DNA of 64,000 nucleotides from Cyanidioschyzon merolae (Eukaryota). Positions 2,869 through 61,638 of the stretch are shown in pieces. A model generated the notes under the pieces. That model had not been told where the DNA came from and made no database searches. It was given only the letters and a program-made list of their open reading frames with translations. The DNA is taken from NCBI GenBank assembly GCA_000091205.1, contig AP006501.2. The stretch is one strand, 5' to 3'. The translations under genes and the position numbers were made by a program. Each line of letters begins with the position of its first letter. Position 1 is the stretch's first letter.

Positions 2869-4065
2869 AGTTGATTTCGTTCCGATGATGCCCGACGAGG
2901 CAGCATCGGAATCGAAGAGATCAATATGGCTGCAGCACGTGCGCTCTTCCATGCTTGGTGGCCGCATCCAGGGCAAATGCACTTCATGGAATGCAGTAGC
3001 AGCGAATAATACATCATAAAATAGGGGATACAGTATCTTTCATGCTTGACGGGGCACGGTATGCTAAAGTCTCGATTGCAGAATGTTTTCTATTCGACAG
3101 ACGTGCACCGTCAGAGAGATACCCTGAGCAAGCTCACAGTCCGCACCACCTGATCCCTTGGCCTGACTATAGTAGCCATCAGAGATGGTCGGGCAACTTT
3201 GTGATTGTTTGACTCGGAATAATGAATTCTGAAACACCTGCATCAGCACGCCCTGTTTGTTTTTTCTACGGGTATTCAAGAGGAGTGTATCTTGCACACC
3301 GGAGAAAGGTCGCCGAACGACCTTATGTCGTCACTGCTTCCTCATGAGAAAGCCCGCTTTACTAGTGCACGGCAGACATTCTCCGGACAGCCTCGCTTCA
3401 CACACGAACAAGGCTCTCTGCAAAAAGAAGCCCTTTACAGCAATGCAGACCCGTCCCGGACTCCGAGCGCCCTCGCGCCCCCATCACTGGCATCGGGGTA
3501 CGACGGGCACCAGGCGGCACACCGGCATGTAGAGTGACGGTGCAAGGACCGTTCTCACCGGCCTGCGTAGCGTATCCAGCAGAGGCGCACGCCTTCTCGG
3601 CTTTATTCAGAGGTCGTCCGTGAGCGTCCAGACGTCTCATGCGGACGCTCTTCGGCATGTATGCATGAGACTGCGCTGGGCGGTCGCCAATGGTTTCGGT
3701 TGTACGCAGACAAGACGGGTGCGTTCCCCAAACGGCTCAGTGACGTGGGAAAGGAAACGACTGAGCAGTCGCGTCGTCCGGTGGGGAGCCCCATCGAGCG
3801 GCACCCGACGCGGCGCACGAGGCCTGTGATCCCGCTTCATCGACCGGAGCTTCCCGCGGGAGCAAGCATCGACGCTGCACTGTGCCCATCGATGCGTTCA
3901 GGGCGTTATGCAAGCGGCACCAGCACGGGCACACGCTGAGGCGGGCACAGAAGAAGAGCGCGAAACATGCGCGCTCGGATGCACCGGATGGTAAGCGATA
4001 AGCAGCGTGCACGTCAGACGCAGAGCCAATCGCAAGTAAGCGGCTCGATATCGCGTGATCCAGCA

Positions 4066-4381
4066 AGCAACCATGCGCGCAAGCACTCTCTGCATCACGA
4101 CTTTAATGCCTCGAGCGACATCCGCGAATGTCCGGTACTTCCAGAGCATCCAGTGAGTATTACGTCGAGCGAACCTTGCGGCAATCGTTTGGTACCCAGT
4201 GGGCGCATTCTGCTGCAATGCTGCGGACATCCGCCAAACAGAATACGAATCCATGGGAGAGCGGCATGTTTTGCCTTGGCGGATCACGGCACTGGTGTGG
4301 TGCTGCTCAGCAATGCGGAAAGCATTGAGCGCGGTACGGATACTCTGGGGACGATTTGCGTTGGCAATATCTGAAAGACAA
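4066..4381. repeat. Direct repeat copy 2 (partner of 1-316)
   Basis: ~96% identity to window positions 1-316; diverges after ...gacaataatgtttc. Confidence 0.85.
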
Positions 4382-6950: not shown

Positions 6951-8649
6951 TCGCGCCGACGCGCTCGAGTCGGTGACTTTTTTCGCTCACCAAACGTTTA
7001 TGTTGTACCTGGATCCCTTATCGCGGGACGAGAACTGGCTATCGGGAAAGCGCCCATCGTGATACGCCTCACCCTCAAGTTCCATTCCTTACAATTCCTT
7101 TCGGATGTACTGGTCGTTTCATGGGTTGTATCGAGCATCGAGTGCCCGTCGTGCTGCATCCACCTTGGCGCCTAGACAGCTGGTGCAGATGCACCTTAGA
7201 GACAGAACGGCTTTGCTGTACCACTGGGGGCTTCGGCTCGAGATGTGGTGCACCTGACACGGATTCGGAGTCCATCATCATGCTGGGGGCCTGGAAACTG
7301 CGCTGAAAGAGCTACCGTCTGCGGCAGCTCGAAGCGACATGCCGGGAGTCCACTGCGACCAGGGCGACGCCCAGACGCAGCCTAACTGCTGCTCCTAGTC
7401 CCAGAGTCGACTGCGTTGCGGACGAGGTGTTCAGGTCGCACCACTGCACTAGGCACAGGTAAGGGCGTGAAGCACTAGTCTTGCAGACTCGTTCGGATTG
7501 CGGGCCGTTTCGCCCTGAAGGCAAACTTTCGGAAGTATGGAAACCTTTTCGCCCTTTTAACGGCTACCGTGGAATGGGACAGGAATCGTTACATCGTTTC
7601 TCGTGAATCGTTCGTCTCTTTCCTTTTTTTCTCCGAATAGCGCGGTCGATAAGCACACCTGCGAGATCACGCAGTCACGAGAGACGACGCGCATGTCGCC
7701 GATGAAGGGAAACGCGTTTCTAACTATGCTCTGACCTATTGCCCTACCGTACATGTTGTATTCGAATTACAGGCGTAGCGGAGTACAGTTTTTTGAGTTC
7801 AATCGCGTTTGAAACGTCAAGTAAGCATATTCAAGTGATGCTGTGCGGTGTATAGGAGAAGCGTTCAATGTGCGTTCTTTCGCAGAAAAAATTCTAAAAA
7901 AAGGAAAGTTATGAGAAAGCAAGTCGACGATCGCGGAGGCGCAGTGTCGCCGGCTGCCAGAAAAAGAACGAAAAACGGTGCCGAGCCCAGGAGCACAGGC
8001 AAAGACGATGAAGCAGAAGCGGGAGGCCCTACGTCAAAGGCCGCGGGAAAGACAACAGTACGACGAGACGGTGGTGAAAGCGTACCTTCGTAAACATATC
8101 AAGGATGCCTACAAGGAAAAGTTGCGAGAGGCCATCAGAAACCGTGTCGAGTCGTACTCCACGAGTACGAAGAAGGCTTCGTCAGGACTGATGCATATGG
8201 TGAACGAGATGCACGACAACGCGACGGACACCAGAACAGTCGAGGTTCCGGGGGAATTTTTCAACAAGACCTTTGCTCGTCACCTGATGGTCGGCACAGG
8301 GGAGCCGTCGACAAACAATGAGCGAGTGCACGCCTTCCACGAAAACTTCGCGGGATTCGGCTTCGAAGGTGCATCGATACAAGGGTTACGGGGATATTCA
8401 CATCTACGGGCCGATCGAGTACCTCGCGAACCTGAGGAACCATTTGACCATGAACCTCGAACGTTTCATGATACGCGCCGTGTTTGCGCTCTACCGGGGC
8501 ATCTCTCGCGGGGAAGAGATGGGCCATCTTCGCTGCCATCACCAACGATCGTCAGCATGAACAGGCAATAGAATTTGTCGACAAGATGACATCACGCAGG
8601 AGCATGAATGAAGCATATGTGATCGGTGCAGCTATTCAAGAGCGTCGTG

Positions 8650-8777
8650 GTAACACGGAGGTAGGGGGTTGGATAGATACTTCACCTCGCACTGAAAAAA
8701 TATCACAAAAAGTAAGAAAAGTAAAATGCGCATAATCGGAGAACGCTGGCCCAAGTAAACGTTTTGTCCATGGAAAA
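8650..8777 (-). mobile_element. ~130-bp MITE-like repeat, here called R2, nested inside copy A
   Basis: Absent from the orthologous position in copy B. Flanked by 12-bp direct repeats aagagcgtcgtg (8638-8649) and aagagcatcgtg (8778-8789). Homologous to 20355-20469 and 39066-39250. Confidence 0.7.
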
Positions 8778-9271
8778 AAGAGCATCGTGAAGTCTTGGGG
8801 CTGGCCAACCCGACAGAAGACGTGTCAGATATGAAAAAAGTGAGAAAAGATGGTACCCCCGCATCCTGCGCTACTTCGTGTTTCTGGACCGAGAACTCGA
8901 ACGCAAGGCGGAGATGGTGCTGGGTGTGTGGAAAAATGAAGAGTCGCGGAGACGGAACGCTTTCCCAATGGGGAAGTGCTTCAACGTGGTTCCAATGAGC
9001 AACATCAAGTCACATTTTGTGACTATCGACCAAGGCGTCCACTACGGCAACATGAGTGAGATCAGTCCGGTGTTCGGTGTCAGCAGGGAGGAGTTCACCG
9101 GTGAAAATCGGGAGACGTACCGGAAGAGTCTCTTCGGTTTCAAACGTCTCAAAGTGAGCAAGCAGAAGGTATTCACGGGGATGATCGGAACCGATGGCGT
9201 AGCCACGTGTGTACGCTATCGGAGGTTTGAAGGCGGATTGTCCAGTTCGGCCTTCGATATCGCCCGTAACG

Positions 9272-9421
9272 AAGCATGAAGAAAACAGGGAGGAGGATCC
9301 TGCCACACAGAAAGTGCAGGATAACGACTTTGTCGTTGACGCGACGAAGCGTGAAGATGAGATGGAGGCGGGTCCTGCTACGCAGAAAGTGCAGGATAAC
9401 GACTTTGTCGTTAGTGCGGAT
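9272..9421 (+). repeat. Tandem 66-nt repeat (two units) encoding an acidic [19 protein letters not shown] motif immediately N-terminal of RuvC-I
   Basis: [20 protein letters not shown] / [18 protein letters not shown] in A; four units at the same place in copy B. Confidence 0.7.
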
Positions 9422-10425
9422 CCCGGGAACACAAATATCATAACCATCGCAGTACCCAAGCGTGCGGAAGATGGTATCAACGGCAACCTACGTCAGACGG
9501 CCCTGCGAGTTTTGAGGTTCTCGAGAGCGGGATGCTATCGAGAATCCGGTATGATCAATGTGAGGAAGAAAATTGAGACACGGAATGCAGGAATGAAGGA
9601 TCTCCTGGAAGCTTTGCGCGGAGTAACGAGCAGAGGAGCAGGCTTTGAAGCTTTTCCGATATTCATGGAAGGTCGCGTTGCTCATTGGGATGCGCTGCTG
9701 GAGGAGTATACAAAGCCCCGGTGGGCTCGTCTGCGTATGAATCTGTACGGTGGTAAGCAGCGGGCATTCGCCAAATTTTTCAGTCAGTTGAGTGCCTTGA
9801 AGGAGGACGAGAGCCAGAGGCTGGTAGTGGCATACGGAGCAGGGCGTCCACAAAAGGGTGCACACCAGCTCCGTCGACGAGAACGTACAAAGCGTGTGCA
9901 CGGCGCTTTGTAATGATACCGATTGATGAGCTCCGAACGTCCTATACACACCACGAACTGGGGTACACACTTGAGACGGTCGACATGGAAAAGTGCCAGC
10001 GGAGTCCTGAAGATATGAAAAAGTATGGAGCGCTAACGGAGGAGCAAATGGACAGGAGGGCGAAAGTTCGTGGACTACTCGCATTAGTAAGTACAATCAA
10101 TGGCAAGAAACGCATGGAAATTGTTAACCGCGACTTTAACGCGGCTACCAATATAAGGAGGTGCGCGGTGATGGAGAGAAGACCTCCGTACTTGACAAGA
10201 GGGAATTTCGTAGGGAAACCTCTCGAGGTGGAATTATACGAGAAAAAGTTGAAACCGGTAGTAGGTGGCCGGTCCAAAAAGAATGTGAGGCATCTGCACG
10301 TCGACTGGAGGCGCATTGTCGAAAGCGCGCCGCGCTCCCGTTAAGCGCCAGTGCGCAGAAGAATTTCCTTCGGTTTCGAGGTATATTGAGAAGGGTCGCG
10401 TTCGTTCTGTGTAGAAAGCTGGACT

Positions 10426-19404: not shown

Positions 19405-19557
19405 ACGGCTGTTGCCCTGCGCGTCCTATTGTACGTTCCCAGGGCGACACGTCCCGCGAACCCCGCTGGCTCACAGAAGCAGAAACCGGAGGGGTGCGCT
19501 CCACGCTGCCGGATCCGCCTCCGCGTCGAGCACATCGCTGCGTTTTTGCTCAGTTTT

Positions 19558-19813
19558 ACAGAATGTTTCCATGGACTAGGGATACCAGATTGCGGGATGG
19601 ATATTGGCATTCGGGAGTGTGCCCATCATGATGCAACCTATGCTCAAGTTCCATGATGCATACTTTTTCTCGGGGGTGTACTGGTCGATTTGAATGTTGT
19701 ATCATGCGGCGAGTACCTGCCTTGCTGCAGCCGCTATACCGCCTATACCGCTGGTGTGGATGCAACCTAGAGACAGAACAGTTTTGCTGTATCGCAGAGG
19801 GCTTCGACTCGAG
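19558..19813. repeat. Inverted repeat, left arm (partner 24333-24578, ~95% identical)
   Basis: Reverse-complement identity seen directly; the spurious ORFs 19556-19765(-) and 24372-24782(+) translate identically. Confidence 0.85.
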
Positions 19814-19831
19814 AATGTAAACTTAACCTTC

Positions 19832-20545
19832 TCAAAGGCGCCTCTCGGCCTTTTTCGACCGGCCACCTGCTATCGGATTGAGTTTCTTTCTGTGCATATC
19901 GAGCCTGAGAGGCTGGCCCACAAAGCTGAATCGCATCAGCTCCTGGGGTCTCGTATCCAATACCGCACATGGTCTGATTTTGATGACGACGTTGAAGCCT
20001 CGATGCACAAACTCCATGCGTTTCTTTCCTCTGATGGAACGCAAAAGTGCTAGGATTCCGAGAACTCGCGACCTCTCTCCGATTCCAATCGCGCCATCGT
20101 CCCACAGGGCAAACTCCTTTTCTCGCCCATCTCCCTGTTCTTCTTCTTCTTCGTCACTTGCCCTTCTTCGCTCGATCGTCAGCGATGAGAGGTGTTTTCC
20201 CCTTTTTTCGTCTGCCAGCAATAACCACCAACCAGGATTCCCGACTTTTATGTCCATATCCTTCCCTTAGATTGTCACCTTCGTCAAAATGAACGCACTT
20301 TGCGTATATCTGCTATGAGCGGAGAATAGACCTTTGATGACACGCACTTGCAGGTTTTTTCATGGACAAAACGTTTACCTAGGCCAGCGTTCTCCGATTA
20401 TGCGCATTTTTCTTTTCTTACTTTTTTTGTGTTATTTTTCCAGTGCGCGGGAAAGTATCTGTCGAACCGCACGCACTTGCAGGTGGAACGCAATTGAGTT
20501 GAACGGTCATGAGCGCAGCACCTGGACGCCGCTTCCGCTGCGCTC
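19832..20545 (-). mobile_element. Copy D of the Fanzor-like family: internal-deletion derivative (5' ~250 bp joined to 3' ~300 bp) with a nested R2 insertion
   Basis: 5' region homologous to A 7790-7960 (..VGNPGWW.. versus VGDPGGP / DDRGGAV). 3' region KKRMEFVHRGFNVVIKIRPCAVL...GGRSKKAERRL. 3' terminus ggccggtcgaaaaaggccgagaggcgcct at ~19843. Confidence 0.7.
20355..20469 (+). mobile_element. R2 MITE-like repeat inserted into the 5' region of copy D
   Basis: Flanked by a perfect 14-bp direct repeat cacgcacttgcagg (20341-20354 and 20470-20483). Fanzor-like homology resumes on the far side. Confidence 0.7.
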
Positions 20546-23879: not shown

Positions 23880-24332
23880 TCGCCATGCGCTGTGGAGTCG
23901 TCACAGAGAAGGACAGGCACTGCCCATTTACTAATTGCGACTGTTCCAAATGAAGACAAGTCGCCAGGAACTAGCAACTAGATAACATTTCGTTCCACCT
24001 TCATGGTAAGCGTTGCAAAAGGGGAACTTTTTCCGTATTTTCGAAAGATTACCTTCGAGGCGGAAAGTCCCTCGCGCCAGACGAGTCTGCAGGGTTGGTG
24101 CTTGAAGCTATTCCCAGCGGCGGGTACAGTGCCGAGACCTCATTAGCTCGTCCACAACGCAGTTATTTTGGGACTTGGGGCGCCAAGGCTGCATCCAGGT
24201 ATTGGCTTGGTCGCAGTGGTCCCCTAACATATCGGTCCGTGCTGTCGCAAGCAGTATTTCTGGCTGCGCAGCTTGCAGGCTCCCAAATTGATGTTGAGTC
24301 CTGATTCTGTGACTTGTGAACCATGACGCGAG

Positions 24333-24578
24333 TCGAAGCCCTCTGCGATACAGCAAAACTGTTCTGTCTCCATGTTGCATCCACACCAGCGGTATAGGCG
24401 GTATAGCGGCTGCAGCAAGGCAGGTACTCGGCGCATGATACAACATTCAAATCGACCAGTACACCCCCGAGAAAAAGTATGCATCATGGAACTTGAAAGT
24501 AGGTTGCATCATGATGGGCACACTCCCGAATGCCAATATCCATCCCGCAATCTGGTATCCCTACTCCATGGAAACATT
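24333..24578. repeat. Inverted repeat, right arm (partner 19558-19813)
   Basis: Reverse complement of 19558-19813. Confidence 0.85.
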
Positions 24579-25258
24579 CTGTCAACCAAAAGAATCGTCG
24601 TGCGGTCGATTGGCGCGCTGGGGCGCTACGAAGCACGCATCGCATGTCTTGCGGGATCGAAGCGTCCAGCCAGGAATCCCCTCAGTGCGCACTTGACATC
24701 GGCAGCGGAGGCAAAAACCACCGCTCCATTCAAATCCAAAGCTCCCTGGTTCCATCACTCACCACCAAATAACCCGCCATGAAGCATCCCGATACCTATT
24801 GCGTGCCTCGTGGTCCCGTTGCATCGTTTGCAGATGCAGGATCGAGACATCGACCGAGATTCCCCGGCGGATGCGCGATTGCTCTCAGAAACCACATGAT
24901 AGAGCACCGCTCCATCCGAAACACCTCAAGTTCCGCAAACCCTGGGCCAGTACGCAACAACGGACACTGGGATTCGTTCCGTTCAACAACATGGGTCCTT
25001 CCAGGTATCGCGCACGCCTCAGGCGCTCGCTGTGACACAGTGCATGGGCCTGCACCACGCGGTTGCGCGGCGGTTGCACGCGCACCGAGGCGCCCCGACG
25101 AGCGCCGACTCGGCGATTCTGGATGCGTGCGCTGGTGTCGCATTCTGCAGCGATGCATCCGTGCCCTGGGCCTCGAGACACGTGTCCGGCATACAACATG
25201 CATGCACGCATGCATGTTGCACAGCGCCAAGTTTGGCATAGCGCGGGAGCTGCTCTGA

Positions 25259-31149: not shown

Positions 31150-31680
31150 GTGGAGAGCAAATTCGGACTGAATCGTAGGGATGCCTCCCAGCCGTTTTTG
31201 ACCGGCTGCCATATTCTCGATCCAGTTTTTGTCCAGGTAAACTTCGAGCCAGGCAGACTGCCCCACAAAGTTACATCGCGTCAGCTACGCGGGTTTCGTC
31301 ATTAGTACCATAAATCGTCTCATGTGGATGATGTTCTTCAAGTCTAGGATCACAAACTCCATGCGTTCGTTGCATCTAGTTGAACTCACTAGTCCAAAGA
31401 TTCCTCGAACTCGAGCGCGCAGTGCCATTTGGTGCTCTGTCAGCTCTGCGCGCTTTTCTGTCGCAGAATCGCTCCGCCGGCTCTTCTCCATTTCGTTCCT
31501 CTGAAGTATACGCCCCAGTTCATCCATTAGATTTTCTCTTTCGTCAAGCGAACATACTTCCTCACGCTCTTAGGTCAGGAGTTTCCCAGAGGATCGAAAG
31601 TCTTGCAAAAGAAAGACGAAATGTGCCCTGGTGTGTCACCGTGTGCTGAAAGCTTCAGCGATTCGCCCAGTGTAGCGATC
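31150..31680 (-). mobile_element. Copy E: Fanzor-like 3'-region fragment fused to an unrelated ~130-bp segment that is also found in copy G
   Basis: DELG..MEK..ELTEHQMALRARVRG..NERMEFVILDL..RRFMVL..LTRCNFVGQ. Upstream block gtcaccgtgtgctgaa.g.ttcagcgattcgccc (31633-31672) recurs at 47159-47197. Confidence 0.6.
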
Positions 31681-35279: not shown

Positions 35280-35785
35280 TAGAGACGATAGCGTGTGTGT
35301 CTGTACACCGATTTGCAGACGCCCCCCCCCCCCCCCGGGTTTTGCTCTAAGGGCCCCATGCCATCGGCTTTAGTTTCTTCTCGTGCACCTCGAGCCGGAG
35401 AGGATGTCCAACAAAGCTTGATCGCCTCAGCTCCTCGGGTCTTGTGTTCAGCACCGCACTTCTCCGGATATGGATCGCAGCGTTGAAGTCTCGGTTCACG
35501 AACTCCATGCATGTATTGCCGCTGTGGTTGAATTCACCAATGCAAGGGTTGATAGGACTCGTTCCCTCTGTACCAGTACAGTCTCGTCATCTACCCGTCA
35601 GGCAAACATCTTTTCTGACATATCTCCCCTCTTCGTATGCTCATTCTTCCTGCTCTTCTTCGCTTCATAGTCGACGAGAAGAGGATATTTTTGAAGCATC
35701 CAGCGATGATGACGGCCCTGCGGGATCCCCGACTTGCAAGTCCATACCTTTTCCTTGGATTTTATTTGCACTTTAAATCAACGCA
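35280..35785 (-). mobile_element. Copy F: internal-deletion derivative of the Fanzor-like family; contains a C16 tract
   Basis: 5' region aaaatccaaggaaaaggta...gtcggggatcccgcagggcc homologous to H and A; 3' region is diverged RuvC-III-like (antisense frame IAALKSRFTNSMHVLP); poly-C at 35322-35338. Confidence 0.55.
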
Positions 35786-39056: not shown

Positions 39057-39260
39057 CACGCGCAGGTTTTTTCATGGACAAGACGTTCACATAGGCCAGC
39101 GTTCTCCGATTATGCGCATTTTTCTTTTCTTACTTTTCTTGTGTGTTTTCTTTCAGTGCGCGGTGAGGTATCCATCAAACACCCGATCTCCAACGTACAT
39201 TACCGATACCTCTTCTCGGATATTCTGGTCGTTTCGTATCCGCATGCAGATCAACGCCAC
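39057..39260 (+). mobile_element. R2 repeat, longest copy (~185 bp)
   Basis: ttttttcatggacaagacgttcacataggccagcgttctccgattatgcgca...; flanked by ccacgcgcagg (39057) and ccacgcgcgg (39251). Confidence 0.55.
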
Positions 39261-42492: not shown

Positions 42493-43011
42493 CTACTGAA
42501 CGGAACACCAGCCCCGCGAAAAATACGGTTTAACAACCTCCGCGGTCGTCGCCGGTTGCGCCACCGTGCCAGTGCTGGAGCCACTGGTTCGTGCTGCTGC
42601 TGCTGCTGCTGCTGCTGCTTCCTTGCTGTGGGGCAGCTTTGACCCCTTGTCCTTCTTCTTCGGTTTGGAGGCCCCGGCTCCGGTGCTCTTTGGTGCTTTC
42701 TGTGACTTGGGCTTTTTCTTCTCTATTTTGTCCGGACGACGCTGCGCCGTAGCTTTGCTTTTCCGCGACAACTTGGACTCCCGTTCTAGTTTCAACGGTA
42801 TGGGCTCCCGTTTCGCTGCGCGGGCGGCTGCGGCAGCCGCGGCGGCGGCACGAGCCGGTGTTCGTCGCGGTGTGGGTAGTGGCGCCTCAGCCGTCGTGGG
42901 GCCGGCGGGTGCCGCCCTCGAAGGCAGCGCCGCCGTTGCCGCTTTTTTGTGCGGAATTTTTTGAGATTTTTTCTCTTCAGACTTGGTGCTTGATTTCATT
43001 TTCACGGTCAT
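42493..43011 (-). CDS. Lys/Ala-rich basic protein (histone-H1-like composition)
   Basis: Start taken at MTVKMKSS (43011); the longer N-terminal extension in the ORF track reads through tandem repeats and is an artefact. Confidence 0.35.
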   Translation of the reverse strand: MTVKMKSSTKSEEKKSQKIPHKKAATAALPSRAAPAGPTTAEAPLPTPRRTPARAAAAAAAAARAAKREPIPLKLERESKLSRKSKATAQRRPDKIEKKKPKSQKAPKSTGAGASKPKKKDKGSKLPHSKEAAAAAAAAARTSGSSTGTVAQPATTAEVVKPYFSRGWCSVQ

Positions 43012-43075
43012 AGAGGGTTGAGAGGGCCTTTCGTTATAGAAGAACGCGAAAACGTGGACCAAGCGCGCGACGTAA

Positions 43076-43197
43076 CGCATTCGTGCGTGCGCGCGCGAAT
43101 TCGTGCTTGTGCGCGCGCATTCGTGCGTGTGTGCGCGCTCTCGTGCGTGTGTGTGCGCGACGTAACGCATTCGTGCGTGTGTGCGCGCCTAGCGGCG
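43076..43197. repeat. ~6 tandem copies of a ~20-bp unit (attcgtgcgtgtgtgcgcgc) abutting the 3' terminus of copy B
   Basis: Seen directly: cattcgtgcgtgcgcgcgcg aattcgtgcttgtgcgcgcg cattcgtgcgtgtgtgcgcg ctctcgtgcgtgtgtgtgcgcg acgtaacgcattcgtgcgtgtgtgcgcg. Confidence 0.8.
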
Positions 43198-43204
43198 ACA
43201 TCTT

Positions 43205-45797
43205 TTTCATTGACAAAACGTCTCCAACTGACGTGCAGGCGCCTCCCAGTCTTTTCGGACCGGCCACCCACTACTGCTTCCAAATTCTTCTCATATAGTT
43301 CCACTTTGAGAGGTTGTCCAACAAAGTTCTCCCGTGTCAGCTCTGGAGGTCTATTCTCCAGCACAGGACATCTCCGTATATTGATAGCGGCGTTAAAGTC
43401 TCGATTCACAAACTCCATACGCTTCTTGCCGTCATTGGTTGTACTCACTAATGCAAGGAGTCCACGAACGTTCGCCCTCCTTTTCATTTGCTCCTCCGTC
43501 AGCGGTCCGTACTTTGCTATTTCCTCAGCGCTCCGCTGACACGTTTCCATCCCCACTCGCTGAAGTGTACATCCCAGTTCATGGTGTGTATACGATGTTC
43601 GAAACTCATCTATCGGTATCGTAACGAAACGCCGTGCACACTCCTTGTACGTTCTTGTCGTCGGAGCTGGCGTAGTTTTTTTTGGGTCTTCCAACACCCT
43701 GCCCTATACGCTACTGAGAGCCTCTGACTTTCATCCTCTATGAGGGCACTCAACTGATTGAAAAAGTTGGCAAACGCCCGCTGGTTACCACAATACAGAT
43801 TCATTCGCAAACGAGCCCATCTGGGCTTTGTATACTCCTCCGGCAGCGCATCCCAATGGGCAAAACGAACTTCCATGAATTTCCGGAAAGCTTCAAAGTC
43901 CGCTCCTCGGCTGGTCACCTCGCTCAAAGCTTCCAGGTGATCCTTCATTCCTGAATTCTACGTACAAATTTTCTTCCTCGCATTCATTATACCGGATTCT
44001 CGATTGTATCTCGCTCTCGAGAACCTCAAAAGGCGCATGTCTTTCTGACGTAAGTTGCCGTCAGTACCATCTTCCGCACGCTGCGGTGCTGCGATGGTGA
44101 TGATATTTGTGTTTCCGGGGTCAGCGCCAACGACAAAGTCGTTCTCATGCACTTTCTGCACCGCAGGACCCGCCTCCTTCTTTTCTTCATGCTTCGCCGC
44201 GTCAACCATAAAGTCGTTATTCTCCATCTCCTGCGCCGAAGGATCCGCCTTCTTCTCATCTTCATCCTTCGCCACGTCAACGACAAGGTCGTTATCCTCC
44301 ACCTCCTGCGTAGCAGGATGCTCCTCTTTGTTTTCTTCATCCTTCGTCACGTCAACGACAAACTCGGTATCCTCCACCTCCTGCATCACAGGATCCTCCT
44401 CTTTGTTTTCTTCATCCTTCGTGACGGGCGCGGCCGAGGGCGGGACTGGCCCATCTGTCTTCAACCGCCGGTGGTGTACACACATGGCTACCCCATCGAT
44501 TTCGATCAACCTAGTGAATACCTTTTGTTTTGCTCGAATTGAGAAGTTTGAAATCGAAGATATTCCCCCAGTACGTCTCACGGTTTTCACCGGGGAACTC
44601 TGTCTTCCTTACACCGAACTCCGGACTGATCTGCCTCATGATGCCGTGAAGGACTGCGGAGTCGATAGTCACAAAATGTGACTTGATGTTGCACAACGGA
44701 ACCACGTTGAAGCGCTTCCCCATTAGGGCAGCCCTCCGTCTCTACCACTCTTCATTTGTCTCTTCACTCAGCTTCATCTCTGCCTTGTGTTCGAGCTCTC
44801 GGTCGAGAAACACAAAATATCGCAGGAGGAGGCGATAGTATCTTTCCTTGTCTTTTTTTCAACTCTGATATCTTGTCTGTTGGATTCGCCAGCCCCAGTA
44901 CCGCACGATGCTCTTGTTTAGCCACACGGATTACAGAAGCTTCATTCGTGCTCTCGTTTGGCGCCTTCTTATCGACGAATTCGACCTCATCTTCATGCTT
45001 GCGATCGTCCGTGATGCCGTTGGTAATCGCCCGTACGCCTTTGCGATAGATGGCCCGGTACGGCGCACACACGGCGCGTATCATGAAACGTTCGAGGCTC
45101 ATCGTCAATTGGTTCTCCAGGTTCGTGAGGTACTTCATCGCCCCGTATGTGTAAATATTTCCGTCACCGCTGTATCGATTATCCTCGAAGCTGTAAAAGG
45201 GATGTTTTTCATGGAGGGCATCCACTAGCACATTTTCCTTCCGCGCTTCTGCTGTACCAAGCATCAGCTGTCGAATAAAGGTCTTGTCCAAGAAATCGTC
45301 CGGAATCTCGACCGTTTCAATATGCGCCACGTCTTCGTACATCTGCCTCGCCAAATGCATCACTCCTGACGACGCCTTGACAATGCTCTTGGAGTACTAG
45401 TCGACAAGTTTTTCGATAGCGTCTCGCAACTTTTCCGTGTACGGATTCTTGATATGTTTAAGAAGACCAGCTTTCACCACCATCTCGTCGTACAGTCGTC
45501 TTTCTTGCCGCCTTCGACGTAGGGCCTCCCGTTTTCGGTTCCTCTTCTCTTCTTTTTCTTCTGGACTCGGCACTGTTTTTTGTTTTTTTTCTAGCAGCCG
45601 GCGACCCTGGGCCTCCAGGATCGTGGACTTGCTTTTTCAAGACTTTCCTTTTCTAGTTTTTTTGGAAAAGAACGCTCCTTGAACCCTTCTGTTATACGCT
45701 ACGAAAAACACTTGACTAGACTTGTTTGAGGGTTGAAACACAAATGAACTGAAAACTTTATTTTTGTTCGAATCCTACGCGAATACAACTTTTACAG
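43205..45797 (-). mobile_element. Copy B of the Fanzor-like RuvC nuclease element, ~2.6 kb, frameshifted
   Basis: ORFs 45458-45640, 44764-45363, 44511-44723, 43958-44590, 43610-43948 and 43008-43697 on the minus strand. Ruv[20 protein letters not shown] (Asp ~44121). RuvC-III EFVNRDFNAAINIRRC (Asp ~43399). 5' terminus gttgtattcg shared with A. Confidence 0.8.
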
Positions 45798-46585
45798 CTG
45801 AACATCACGCTAGAGATCAGGATCGCGTTTTCCTTCAACGGCGGCATGCGCATCCTGTCTCATGCTTGCCTGATCTCCCAGGAACGCTCATTTAGCGCAC
45901 TGCGTGCACCGCGCGAGACGCCTCACCGATCGATGAAGGACACGTGTCCGACACCCCGCCTTGGCACATGCGTGTTCGCATCGCGCTGGAGCGAAAATCA
46001 AGTGTCCTAGATCGTGAACTCACGTAGAACGATCTCTTGCTGTAGGCTCTGTCGCTGGTGCCGACGCTACTGCCCATCGCAGTACCGTCCTGACATACAA
46101 GGGGATGCAGGGGCCTGGTACGATACCCGTCGACGCGTCTATCAAACGCGTAGCGTTCTCTGCGGCTTACGCTTGTGCGGATGAGATATGCATCACTCTA
46201 CTCATTAGAAATTTCGTTACATTTATTGATCGTAAACAAACAAGGTACGGTAGTGTTCCCCAACACGGATACAAGTTTATTTCATTTGCTTGTTATACAT
46301 GCCGCACGGACGCTGGAATAAGGAACTAACCTGAATTTTGCTTCCACCCGGCGTCACGGGCTGGAACTGATGGCGCTTCAAGTCATTTCCATGCTGCTGT
46401 CGTTGTTCAACTTATGGTGCCTGCATCGTCCTCCGGATCCGGTGATCTTGGCCGAGGCATACCACACATATAGCGTCCAGATCTGCCACGACGTTTGAAC
46501 ATTGCATCTCGCCTGGCATGATCGACACGCTTGAGAAAAGCGCATACTGTATTCTGGTCTACTCTATCAGATTATATACAATTGC

Positions 46586-47200
46586 CTAACCCGTACATCG
46601 ACGACCGCAGACCAACAACAAACGCCTTCCAAAAGAAAAACGTTTTCGCCAGCCGTGTACAGTAGTGGCGCTCTGCGCGCCCCAGACGAAACGTCTCAAT
46701 CTACCAGTCCGCAGACGCCTCTCAGGCTTTGTTGAACGGCCGACTGGTATCGATCTCAGCTTCTCCTTGTACAATTCGAGACTGGGAGGCTGTCCCACAC
46801 CAAAGTTGACATGCCACAGCGCCACGGATCTCGTCTTCAGAACCGCACATCCCCTGATATTGCTAGCAGTGTTAAAGTCTCGGTTAACAAACACCATGCG
46901 TTTATTGCCTCTTCTTGAACTTGTCCATGCAAGGAGTCGTCGAAGTCATGCCCTCACTGCCATTTAGTGCTCTATCAGCTCTCCGTGCTTTTCTGTCGCC
47001 GAAGCGCCCCGCTGGCTCTTCTCTATCTCATTCTTCTGAAGTGTACACCCGGGCTCATCCCTTGATTTTTCAAAATGAAGAAACTTGTTTATATCTTTAA
47101 GTTGGAACCCTCCCGGAGGGATAAGCACTTGCGGGGAAAACATGACATGAGCCCCGTAATGTCACCGTGTGCTGAACGTTTCAGCGATTCGCCCCGCAGA
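46586..47200 (-). mobile_element. Copy G: Fanzor-like 3' fragment plus the extension shared with E
   Basis: MVFVNRDFNTASNIRGCAVL...LELYKEKLRSIPVGRSTKPERRL; upstream gtcaccgtgtgctgaacgtttcagcgattcgccc. Confidence 0.6.
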
Positions 47201-58574: not shown

Positions 58575-59175
58575 GACTGATACCCACGCACAGGCGCCTC
58601 GCAGTGTTTTTTGACCGGCCCTCTGCTATCGGTAGTAATGCTTGTCCGTGCACGTTTCGAGTCTGAGAGTCTGTCCCATTAAGTAAGATGGCCTAATTTC
58701 GTCAGCACTCGTCTTCATCCCCACACATCGTCTGATATTCATGGCGGTGGTGACGTCTCGGTTCACGAACGCTATTCGTGCATTGACACTGATTGAACGC
58801 ACCAATGCAATGATTGCTAGAACTCGCGTACCCAGCGCCACTGACGCCTTGTTGTCGCCCCATTCTACAAATACCTTTTCTCGTGTCTTGCCCTTCTTCT
58901 ACTTTTCATCGTCATTTGCGCTTCTTCGGTCTATTGTCGGTGGGAAGAGGCTTTTTTCGTTTTCTTCCTGCAACCGGCGATGGTGGCCCTCCTGGATCCC
59001 CGACTACCATGTGCGTACGTTTTCCTTGGATTTTTTTTGTTTCATCAAATGAAGACACTTCGAATGCATCCGCTATACACCGCGAAAAAGCATTTGATGA
59101 CATACACATTGACCTGGAACTCCATTTATGTGAAGGACTGTAATGATGGCGCTGTCGTGGCGAACGCTTTGCTTG
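58575..59175 (-). mobile_element. Copy H: internal-deletion derivative of the Fanzor-like family (5' ~280 bp + 3' ~320 bp)
   Basis: 5' region ggtgtatagcggatgc...gtcggggatccaggagggcc...cgccggttgcaggaagaaaacgaaaaa (VGDPGGPPSPVAGRKRKK) aligned to A 7830-7960. 3' region IAFVNRDVTTAMNIRRC...ggccggtcaaaaaacactgcgaggcgcctg. Confidence 0.7.
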
Positions 59176-60959: not shown

Positions 60960-61550
60960 GCGGTATGCGAAAGAATCTGGACTGTGGGAGGCAGCGTGCA
61001 TTCGTCAACTTTTTCAATCAGTTGAGCGCCTTGAAGGAGGATCAAAGTCAGAGGCTCGTAGTAGCGTACGGAGCAGGGCGCTGGAAGACCCATAAAGGGA
61101 CGAGGCCAGCTCCAACGACAAGAATGTATGAGGCGTGCACACGGCGTTTCGTTACGATACCGATAGATGAGTTCCGAATATCCTATACACACCATGAACT
61201 GGGATGCACACTTCAGAGGGTCGAGATGGAAACGTGCCAACGGAGCCCTGAGGATATAAAAAAGCACGGACCGCTGACGGAAGAGCAAATGGAAAGGAGG
61301 GCGAAAGTTCGTGGACAACTTGCACTAGTGAGTACAACCTATGATAGTAAGAAACGTATGGAGTTCGTGAATCGTGACTTTAATCCTGCTATCAATATAA
61401 GGAAATGTGCGGTGCTGGAGACGAGACCTCCAGAGTAGACAAGACAGAATTTTACTGGACAACCTCTCAAGATTGAACCATATGAGAAAAAGTTTGAAGC
61501 AGTAGTGAGTGGCCGGTCGAAAAAGGCCGGGAAGCGTCTGTACGTCAGTT
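60960..61550 (+). mobile_element. Copy C: 5'-truncated Fanzor-like 3' fragment lying in the divergent MECR/NDUFS8 promoter region
   Basis: Single-frame QRAFVNFFNQLSALKEDQSQRLVVAYGAG...RRFVTIPIDEFRISYTHHELGCTLQRVEMETCQRS...KKRMEFVNRDFNPAINIRKCAVLETRPPE; 3' terminus ...ctgtacgtcagttggag at ~61548. Confidence 0.75.
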
Positions 61551-61638
61551 GGAGCCTTCTCGTCCAGGGCGGGTTTTTCGCCACTACTGTATACCGCTGG
61601 CGACGTTCGACTTTAGAACGGCGTTTACTTTTGGTGAA

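Follow-up and report, generated by a model that had tools for sequence, protein, structure and literature searches.

Does the repeatedly interrupted reading frame on the minus strand of a stretch of Cyanidioschyzon merolae DNA belong to a working gene, with breaks that the cell removes, or to a dead one? The stretch (contig AP006501.2 of assembly GCA_000091205.1) is 64,000 nucleotides (nt) long and is referred to below as the window. It holds two long, broken copies of the same gene, copy A on the plus strand and copy B on the minus strand, and it is copy B that concerns us here. An initial annotation, made from the sequence alone, took B for a decayed nuclease gene. We find that copy B is very probably a pseudogenised insertion of the element CMe-1A in C. 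merolae 10D, the sole gene of which is a Fanzor1 gene, ancestrally intron-less and about 793 codons long, with copy A representing a separate subfamily that was inactivated separately. Fanzor1 proteins are eukaryotic; their homologue in bacteria is TnpB, a DNA endonuclease of the RuvC type that is guided by RNA.

Lesions of copy B and the ancestral reading frame

The ancestral frame was derived from 71 related loci found in metagenomes with near-identical strains; 34 of these loci are full-length and, with copies A and B, give an alignment of 36 copies. The majority consensus is one uninterrupted open reading frame (ORF) of 793 codons, running from MKKQVDDPGG... to ...RRLHVSWRRFV and a stop codon. 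Because this consensus is continuous, there are no introns to invoke. Every one of the 34 environmental full-length copies is itself broken, each differently (36 of 36 when A and B are included), and the least damaged of them, L004, carries one −1 frameshift at a hot spot at codon 19 and one premature TAA.

By blastn, copy B is 87.8% identical to the family consensus over 2,757 nt (window positions 45962–43212), and its upstream region (46,721–45,702) matches loci L007, L038, L075, L008, L029 and L042 at 75–82%. Read in the direction of the gene, its parts and lesions are the following.

43203–46600 (−): copy B, a CMe-1A element made of a 5′ module, a common leader, the Fanzor1 pseudogene and an aberrant 3′ end; its 5′ boundary is placed approximately
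45891–46600 (−): B-type 5′ module, which at least six other loci share and which is unrelated to the module of copy A
45641–45890 (−): conserved 5′ leader of all subfamilies including A, about 250 nt, containing 'gttgtattcg'
43212–45640 (−): Fanzor1 pseudo-ORF, consensus codons 1–793, placed by tblastn of the consensus protein and by the lesion map
45638–45640 (−): lost start, ATG of the consensus changed to TTG (lesion map against the consensus)
45576–45592 (−), about 45585: +1 frameshift in an A8CA6 run at codon 19, the sole lesion site in common with A and a family-wide hot spot
45397–45399 (−): in-frame TAG at codon 81, TCG in the consensus and in A
44853–44861 (−), near 44859: +1 frameshift in an A-run at codon 260; in A this run has a −1 of separate origin, at 8833
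44742–44744 (−): in-frame TAG at codon 299, GAG in the consensus
44529–44534 (−), near 44531: +1 frameshift at codon 369, a break already seen in the initial annotation, with QKVF after the break
44125–44424 (−): acidic tandem repeats, four of 75 nt (25 amino acids, aa), in frame, just upstream of RuvC motif I
44105–44128 (−): RuvC motif I, GADPGNTN, catalytic Asp codon kept
43958–43960 (−): in-frame TAG at codon 544, TGG in the consensus, not in the orthologous metagenome copies
43677–43684 (−), near 43679: −1 frameshift in an A-run at codon 638; the −7 of A at 9847 (codon 633) is a separate event
43593–43613 (−): RuvC motif II, IDEFRTS, catalytic Glu codon kept
43380–43406 (−): RuvC motif III, NRDFNAAIN, catalytic Asp codon kept
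43203–43211 (−): aberrant 3′ end, the family stop codon and a hairpin tail of about 65 nt being replaced by AATGAAAAA

Copy B has thus lost its ATG, has four 1-nt frameshifts (three of the four in A-runs) and three TAG codons, and lacks both the family stop codon, which is replaced by AAT at 43211–43209, and the 3′ hairpin tail. The breaks of A and B are all small insertions or deletions (indels), mostly of 1 nt and often in homopolymer runs, the exceptions being the TAG codons of B and a 140-nt insertion in A.

Two orthologues of copy B, L072 and L060, come from independent metagenome assemblies and are 99% identical to it over 4.6 kb including the flanks. All four frameshifts of B are found in L072 and three of the four in L060, and the stops at codons 81 and 299 are in both. 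Neither has the stop at codon 544, which is therefore of recent origin in B, and both carry a stop at codon 149 that B does not have. These orthologues bear directly on the possibility that B is truly intact and that its frame breaks arose as errors of sequencing or assembly in homopolymer runs. Three of the four indels do lie in A-runs, as such errors would, but the recurrence of the lesions in independent orthologous assemblies means that they are real, and the three TAG substitutions and the change of ATG to TTG are not of the homopolymer type. We give this explanation practically no weight.

The substitutions tell when the gene died. Relative to the consensus, the ratio of nonsynonymous to synonymous substitution rates (Ka/Ks) is 0.37 for B, 0.42 for A and 0.36–0.45 for every copy, and between A and B it is 0.42. 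When the 370 substitutions of A were placed at random, 9.6 stops were expected (never fewer than 2 in 300 simulations), but A has none; for B, random placement gives 6.7 expected stops against 3 observed. A Ka/Ks of about 0.4 and this deficit of stops together indicate that most of the divergence arose under coding selection, with death coming later. Between B and its orthologue L072, Ka/Ks is about 1.5 at a divergence of 0.9%, which equals the divergence of the flanks: B is now drifting neutrally, and its decay is ongoing.

Could B nevertheless be a working gene, with its breaks removed by splicing, programmed frameshifting or stop read-through? The A-runs that hold three of the four frameshifts are potentially slippery, and the codons of the catalytic motifs are intact. 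However, introns are not expected in a family with a continuous consensus, and what interrupts B are 1-nt indels without GT..AG boundaries, three in-frame TAG codons and a missing ATG; the set of breaks, besides, differs from copy to copy. The orthologues, moreover, differ in the stops that they carry, and a Ka/Ks of about 1.5 against one of them is at odds with a functional product. A working gene is in our view extremely improbable.

The 3′ end of copy B is abnormal as well. In most copies the true 3′ end of the family lies about 65 nt past the stop codon and includes a 46-nt sequence capable of forming a hairpin. A covariance model of this tail finds 58 instances in the fetched loci (22–59 bits) and two in the window, one in a truncated copy, C (61589–61634), and one in a fragment adjoining copy B (46612–46657). 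Beside A or B no diverged tail was detected, the model with its filters off reaching at most 5.5 bits and local alignment of the sequence downstream of both copies performing no better than shuffles. The end of B, ...ACGTTTTGTC-AATGAAAAA, is instead the 3′ end of an unrelated, short, retroposon-like dispersed repeat; its last 19 nt (43203–43221, minus strand), ACGTTTTGTCAATGAAAAA, match that repeat rather than the CMe-1A tail. This ending is peculiar to B and its orthologues among the roughly 55 copies examined. Recombination, a tiny 5′-truncated insertion with deletion of the tail, or descent from a separate subfamily are possible origins of this odd ending. Fanzor and TnpB elements normally encode their guide RNA at the 3′ tail. 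With its reading frame destroyed and with neither the stop codon nor the tail, the usual site of the guide RNA, B can no longer serve as a protein gene and probably not as an RNA gene either.

A dead gene can still be retained for a non-coding host role, in this case as a regulatory sequence or a source of small RNA by the gene that starts near 43,010. Copy B lies directly upstream of this minus-strand host ORF, with a 20-nt GC/CA-rich minisatellite of about five or six CGCACACACGCACGAATGCG-like units (43065–43190) between its 3′ end and the start of the ORF, and the locus is kept in related strains. Yet the identity of the orthologues is 99.1% in the element and 99.2% in the flanks, and this equality implies no extra constraint on B. 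The 3′ RNA-like tail of the family is missing, and an Rfam scan of 42.8–47.3 kb returned nothing at the gathering score; a match to mir-3149 in the minisatellite (E=0.13) is at chance level. A host role is therefore very unlikely, if a little less so than the other alternatives weighed here. No tRNAs were found in the window.

The Fanzor1 protein and the CMe-1A family

A database search returned 28 relatives; the best of them, P0001, is a 752-aa product with no interruption and with 74% identity. A profile built from 14 relatives, compared with Protein Data Bank (PDB) sequences, matched PpFz1 of Parasitella (9cf0; E=1.2e-12) and SpuFz1 of Spizellomyces (8gkh; E=1.6e-10), and in the profile alignment the three RuvC motifs (D, E and D) line up with those of SpuFz1, of which the catalytic residues are D383, E541 and D606 (PMC11423790). 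With an AlphaFold2 model of P0001, a near-intact relative, the best seven Foldseek matches were all Fanzor1 structures (SpuFz, PpFz and GtFz; E 1e-8 to 1.5e-6, TM (template modelling) scores of 0.45–0.61), and Cas12 proteins came next with E above 0.09. The family gene is thus shown to encode a Fanzor1 homologue, and the catalytic-motif codons are kept in B. The profile match to solved Fanzor1 structures and the predicted fold also give substance to the label 'nuclease', which had been assigned from the sequence. Fanzor1 proteins have been demonstrated to be omega-RNA-guided RuvC endonucleases (PMC11423790); by homology to these characterised enzymes, we infer that the ancestral CMe-1A protein was RNA-guided too.

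The likeness to the characterised proteins SpuFz1 (8gkh), GtFz1 (9cer) and PpFz1 (9cf0) comprises the overall fold, the order of the RuvC motifs, the aligned D/E/D positions and the motifs DPGxxN, DEFRTS and NRDxNAA. Identity is, however, just 10–14%, acidic repeats of 25 aa, variable in number, precede RuvC-I in the CMe-1A protein, and the cysteines of its TNB domain are largely replaced; B is a pseudogene, and an omega-RNA is only putative in this family. With bacterial TnpB (IS200/IS605 and IS607) the family has in common a homologous RuvC core and a short element with a conserved 3′ end able to form a hairpin. It differs in its eukaryotic host, in a protein about twice as long, in a Cas12f1-like_TNB domain that is weakly detected and in distant relatives only, and in that no TnpA partner and no pair of left-end and right-end hairpins was found.

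A single Fanzor1 family, CMe-1A, has been described in C. merolae (Bao and Jurka 2013, Mobile DNA 4:12; PMC3627910). It comprises about 150 copies, about 80% identical to a consensus of roughly 3 kb, has neither terminal inverted repeats nor target-site duplications (TSDs) that could be determined, and is of unknown class; its 5′ 635 bp are identical to a separate repeat, TE-N2_CMe, and some of its copies in the genome are intact (PMC3627910). Its long-lasting coding capacity was remarked on by the same authors (PMC3627910), and the Ka/Ks of about 0.4, with divergence under selection, matches that remark. Copies A and B fit this description: they are in the same genome, belong to a multi-copy family with a Fanzor1-type gene, measure about 3.3–3.4 kb and are roughly 80–90% identical to the consensus. 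Copy A, further, has a separable 5′ module of about 650–700 nt that also stands alone, as would be expected of TE-N2_CMe; the module of B is a different one. No inverted repeat pairing the two ends of A or of B was found. What we add to the published description is at least four alternative 5′ modules and a conserved 46-nt 3′ hairpin tail, absent in A and B. The paper and our sample differ on integrity, some copies being intact in the former whereas 36 of 36 full-length copies are broken here; the supposition that an intact master copy may exist elsewhere in the genome agrees with Bao and Jurka (PMC3627910), but no such copy is found among the 34 full-length environmental relatives. The analogy that these authors draw with the HAL1 'half' elements (PMC3627910) holds in so far as CMe-1A has one ORF that was long under selection and encodes no recognisable transposase; it is an analogy only, HAL1 elements being retrotransposons derived from L1, with ORF1p and not a nuclease as their product. 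Copy B is, in sum, an ordinary decayed member of an already described family, and the first reading of it was essentially right.

Several points weigh against this assignment or against parts of it. Direct searches with the stitched B protein, a Pfam scan and a single-sequence search of the PDB, gave no match, so the assignment requires profile or fold comparison, and the AlphaFold2 model of P0001 has a mean predicted local distance difference test (pLDDT) score of 62, that is, moderate confidence only. The zinc-finger cysteines of the TNB domain (CxxC...CxxC, between RuvC-II and RuvC-III) are mostly missing in the family, the C. merolae sequences having THHELGCTL...EKCQRS...LLALVSTT at this position; PF07282 (Cas12f1-like_TNB) has only sub-threshold matches, in P0027 (E=2.9e-5) and P0028, which are distant relatives; P0001 scores E=0.23. 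The membership of A and B in CMe-1A follows from the description in the paper and not from an alignment to the Repbase consensus. The start codon of the consensus is uncertain, the A-run at codon 19 being altered in over half of the copies: either this run is extremely mutable, or translation truly starts further downstream, which would put the run in the 5′ untranslated region; consensus codons 2–52 contain no further in-frame ATG. The 3′ hairpin has no covariation above expectation: its share of paired cells (66.9% in a MAFFT alignment, 66.5% in a model-fitted one) and its covariation score are no different from the shuffled means. Finally, RNA guidance, transcription and a role of the 3′ hairpin in CMe-1A are inferred.

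An impression of covariation gained by eye was rejected after the shuffled controls, and what we claim for the tail is a conserved hairpin-capable sequence and no more. Its fold has a mean z-score of −1.9, below −1.5 in 20 of 34 copies, and RNAalifold, applied to the last 310 nt of 45 copies, gave no convincing consensus structure (−2.45 kcal/mol).

Copy A and its relation to copy B

Copies A and B are colinear over the whole coding region, on opposite strands and 33 kb apart, as seen in inverted-repeat pairs, blastn and global alignment, so the description of B as a full-length inverse copy holds. The identity of the two, put at roughly 85% in the initial annotation, is lower: 77% over 2,519 shared alignment columns and 75–80% by blastn. 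Identity to the family consensus is 90% for B and 83% for A, and three-frame stitched translations of the two copies give proteins of about 735–795 aa. The termini first proposed also have to be moved. The string 'gttgtattcg' (A 7755–7764, B 45780–45789), taken for the 5′ terminus, lies inside the common leader, homology beginning about 110 nt further upstream (A about 7641–7650, B about 45885–45898). At the other end, ctgcacgtcagttggag (B 43222–43238) encodes LHVSWR, with about five codons of the ORF still to come, and is not an exactly common string, A having ctgcacgtcGACtggag at that site. The features of copy A are these.

6984–10320 (+): copy A, with its ORF at 7911–10320; ATG kept, no in-frame stop, seven frameshifting indels, no recognisable 3′ hairpin
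7966 (+): +1 frameshift
8373 (+): +1 frameshift
8516 (+): +1 frameshift
8638–8777 (+): 140-nt retroposon-like insertion, flanked by a 12-nt direct duplication (AAGAGCGTCGTG / AAGAGCATCGTG)
8833 (+): −1 frameshift
9226 (+): +1 frameshift
9269–9412 (+): two acidic 75-nt repeats
9847 (+): −7 frameshift

Where B has a single 199-aa ORF (44764–45363), A needs three or more frames, in line with the initial annotation, owing to the +1 at 8373, the +1 at 8516 and the insertion at 8638–8777; conversely, B is broken by the +1 insertion near 44531 where A is continuous. The lesion sets of the two copies have no overlap except the A8CA6 run at codon 19 (B about 45576–45592, A about 7958–7972), where about 20 of the 36 copies have a length change (−1, +1, +2 or +5). 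An ancestral frameshift common to both at codons 260/261 and 633/638 was considered and rejected: the changes are +1 versus −1 and −1 versus −7, and events that differ in size and sign are independent. With a continuous consensus of 36 copies and lesion sets that differ save at codon 19, the breaks are indeed mostly independent decay and not introns. The acidic repeats also vary in number, with two in A, four in B and more in relatives such as P0007; this stretch before RuvC motif I is disordered in the AlphaFold prediction (pLDDT 22–27).

Upstream of the common leader the two copies run into different modules. The 5′ module of A, about 700 nt long (to about 6,984–7,046), is found in L017, L020, L041, L043, L048, L051 and L073 and is unrelated to that of B, also about 700 nt (to about 46,600). 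Each copy is also closer to other loci than to its counterpart, B to L042, L039 and L004 (82–84%) and A to L044 and L033 (78–80%). These comparisons bear on a further explanation, namely that a copy already dead underwent an inverted segmental duplication, with A and B as its two arms. Their opposite orientation at a distance of 33 kb, the +1 at codon 19 in both and the absence of the 3′ hairpin tail from both would all suit such an origin. Arms of a duplication would, however, hardly be only 77% identical with unrelated 5′ modules and flanks, nor would each be closer to other loci than to the other; outside the homopolymer hot spot there is no common lesion, and a Ka/Ks of 0.42 between A and B places most of their divergence under coding selection. 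We consider the duplication highly improbable. Copies A and B are instead different subfamilies, not duplicates of one another, which diverged while the protein was under purifying selection and were then each inactivated separately.

Other copies in the window and the spread of the element

Apart from A and B, the window contains the following pieces of Fanzor sequence.

60963–61634 (+): copy C, 5′-truncated, from codon 594 to the end, with its hairpin tail kept (61589–61634)
46612–47194 (−): divergent 5′-truncated Fanzor 3′ fragment with a hairpin tail (46612–46657), head-to-tail just upstream of the 5′ module of B
19835–20074 (−): diverged 3′ fragment
31183–31668 (−): diverged 3′ fragment
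35338–35546 (−): diverged 3′ fragment
58582–58826 (−): diverged 3′ fragment
3482–4182: very degraded, colinear Fanzor-like relic, codons 528–638 and 701–758 at 26–28% identity

Over the C-terminal RuvC region, the five diverged fragments (all those listed on the minus strand) have just 36–58% identity to the consensus protein of CMe-1A and suggest that a genome reported to have only one family also holds an older or separate Fanzor lineage. No long ORF was found in copy C, the five fragments or the relic, and as the window holds only these beyond A and B, there is no intact nuclease gene in it, in agreement with the initial annotation. An intact divergent Fanzor at 3.4–4.2 kb was considered and rejected, only ORFs under 140 aa being present there. 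The relic lies in the interval of a direct repeat (1–300 and 4067–4366; 300 nt, 96% identical, 4,066 nt apart) that is cut by the window edge.

The 5′ module of A, at 7011–7543 (+) in that copy, also stands alone at 24030–24585 (−) and 19555–19814 (+), and these stand-alone modules are probably TE-N2_CMe. Parts of them, 19555–19811 and 24329–24585, are 97% identical, lie inverted to each other at a distance of 4.5 kb and are far younger than the rest of the family. The short dispersed repeat with the end ...ACGTTTTGTCCATGAAAAAA is present at 8638–8777 (+), 20345–20467 (−) and 39057–39238 (−), and elsewhere in L004 (8394–8565) and a dozen other loci. Its copies are 5′-truncated, with TSDs of 12 nt (AAGAGCRTCGTG) in A and a perfect 14 nt (CCTGCAAGTGCGTG) at 20.4 kb; 5′ truncation and TSDs of variable length are hallmarks of retroposition mediated by long interspersed nuclear elements. 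In five independent loci (L016, L018/19, L022, L025 and L033) this repeat stands directly upstream of the CMe-1A common core. The window also encodes a threonyl-tRNA synthetase (BAM82821.1), an RNase III-like protein (BAM82830.1) and a DadA-like protein (BAM82823.1), all identical to those of C. merolae 10D. Its ORFs are long and intron-less, its G+C content is about 55%, and an isoamylase gene is among its genes, all of which suits an origin in this alga.

How might CMe-1A have spread? The ancestral element would have made a Fanzor1 nuclease guided by RNA from the 3′ end of the element, and the activity of this nuclease may have helped the element to persist or spread, as has been proposed for TnpB and Fanzor elements in general. 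Tentatively, and with more doubt than confidence, we suggest that spread was by a 3′-anchored copy mechanism, rolling-circle-like or RNA-mediated, and not by cut-and-paste, with the 46-nt hairpin as a recognition element. On this view the hairpin might double as the final stem of the Fanzor guide RNA, propagation would depend on the Fanzor protein, and swaps of the 5′ module would give rise to new subfamilies.

Several observations hint at such a mechanism. Inside contigs, eight loci (about four distinct copies: L045, L046/47/63, L059/61/69 and L070) are 5′-truncated and none is 3′-truncated, and all fragments in the window are 3′ fragments. On one common core there are at least four alternative 5′ modules, at least two of them of types beyond those of A and B. 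At several independent loci the start of the element abuts, head-to-tail, the 3′ end of another copy or of a short retroposon-like repeat; in L007/L038, for example, the B-type 5′ module again begins right after the tail of another copy, a head-to-tail arrangement that suggests insertion beside the family's own 3′ end, or tandem formation. The Ka/Ks of about 0.4 is a further hint. Against a 3′-anchored mechanism, the best repeats around the 5′-truncated copies, sought as TSDs, are of 4–7 nt, the same as in mismatched controls, the hairpin has no covariation above shuffles, and no partner polymerase or transposase was identified.

In itself, copy B is a minor addition, one more dead copy of a Fanzor1 family catalogued in C. 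merolae in 2013. Its 5′-truncated relatives, swapped 5′ modules, 3′ hairpin and head-to-tail insertions nevertheless bear on how CMe-1A moved. With dozens of copies that diverged by 10–20% under purifying selection, an ancestral Fanzor1 and its 3′ tail could be reconstructed with confidence from a thermo-acidophilic alga, and the reconstructed sequence would be a candidate for testing as a heat-tolerant RNA-guided nuclease.

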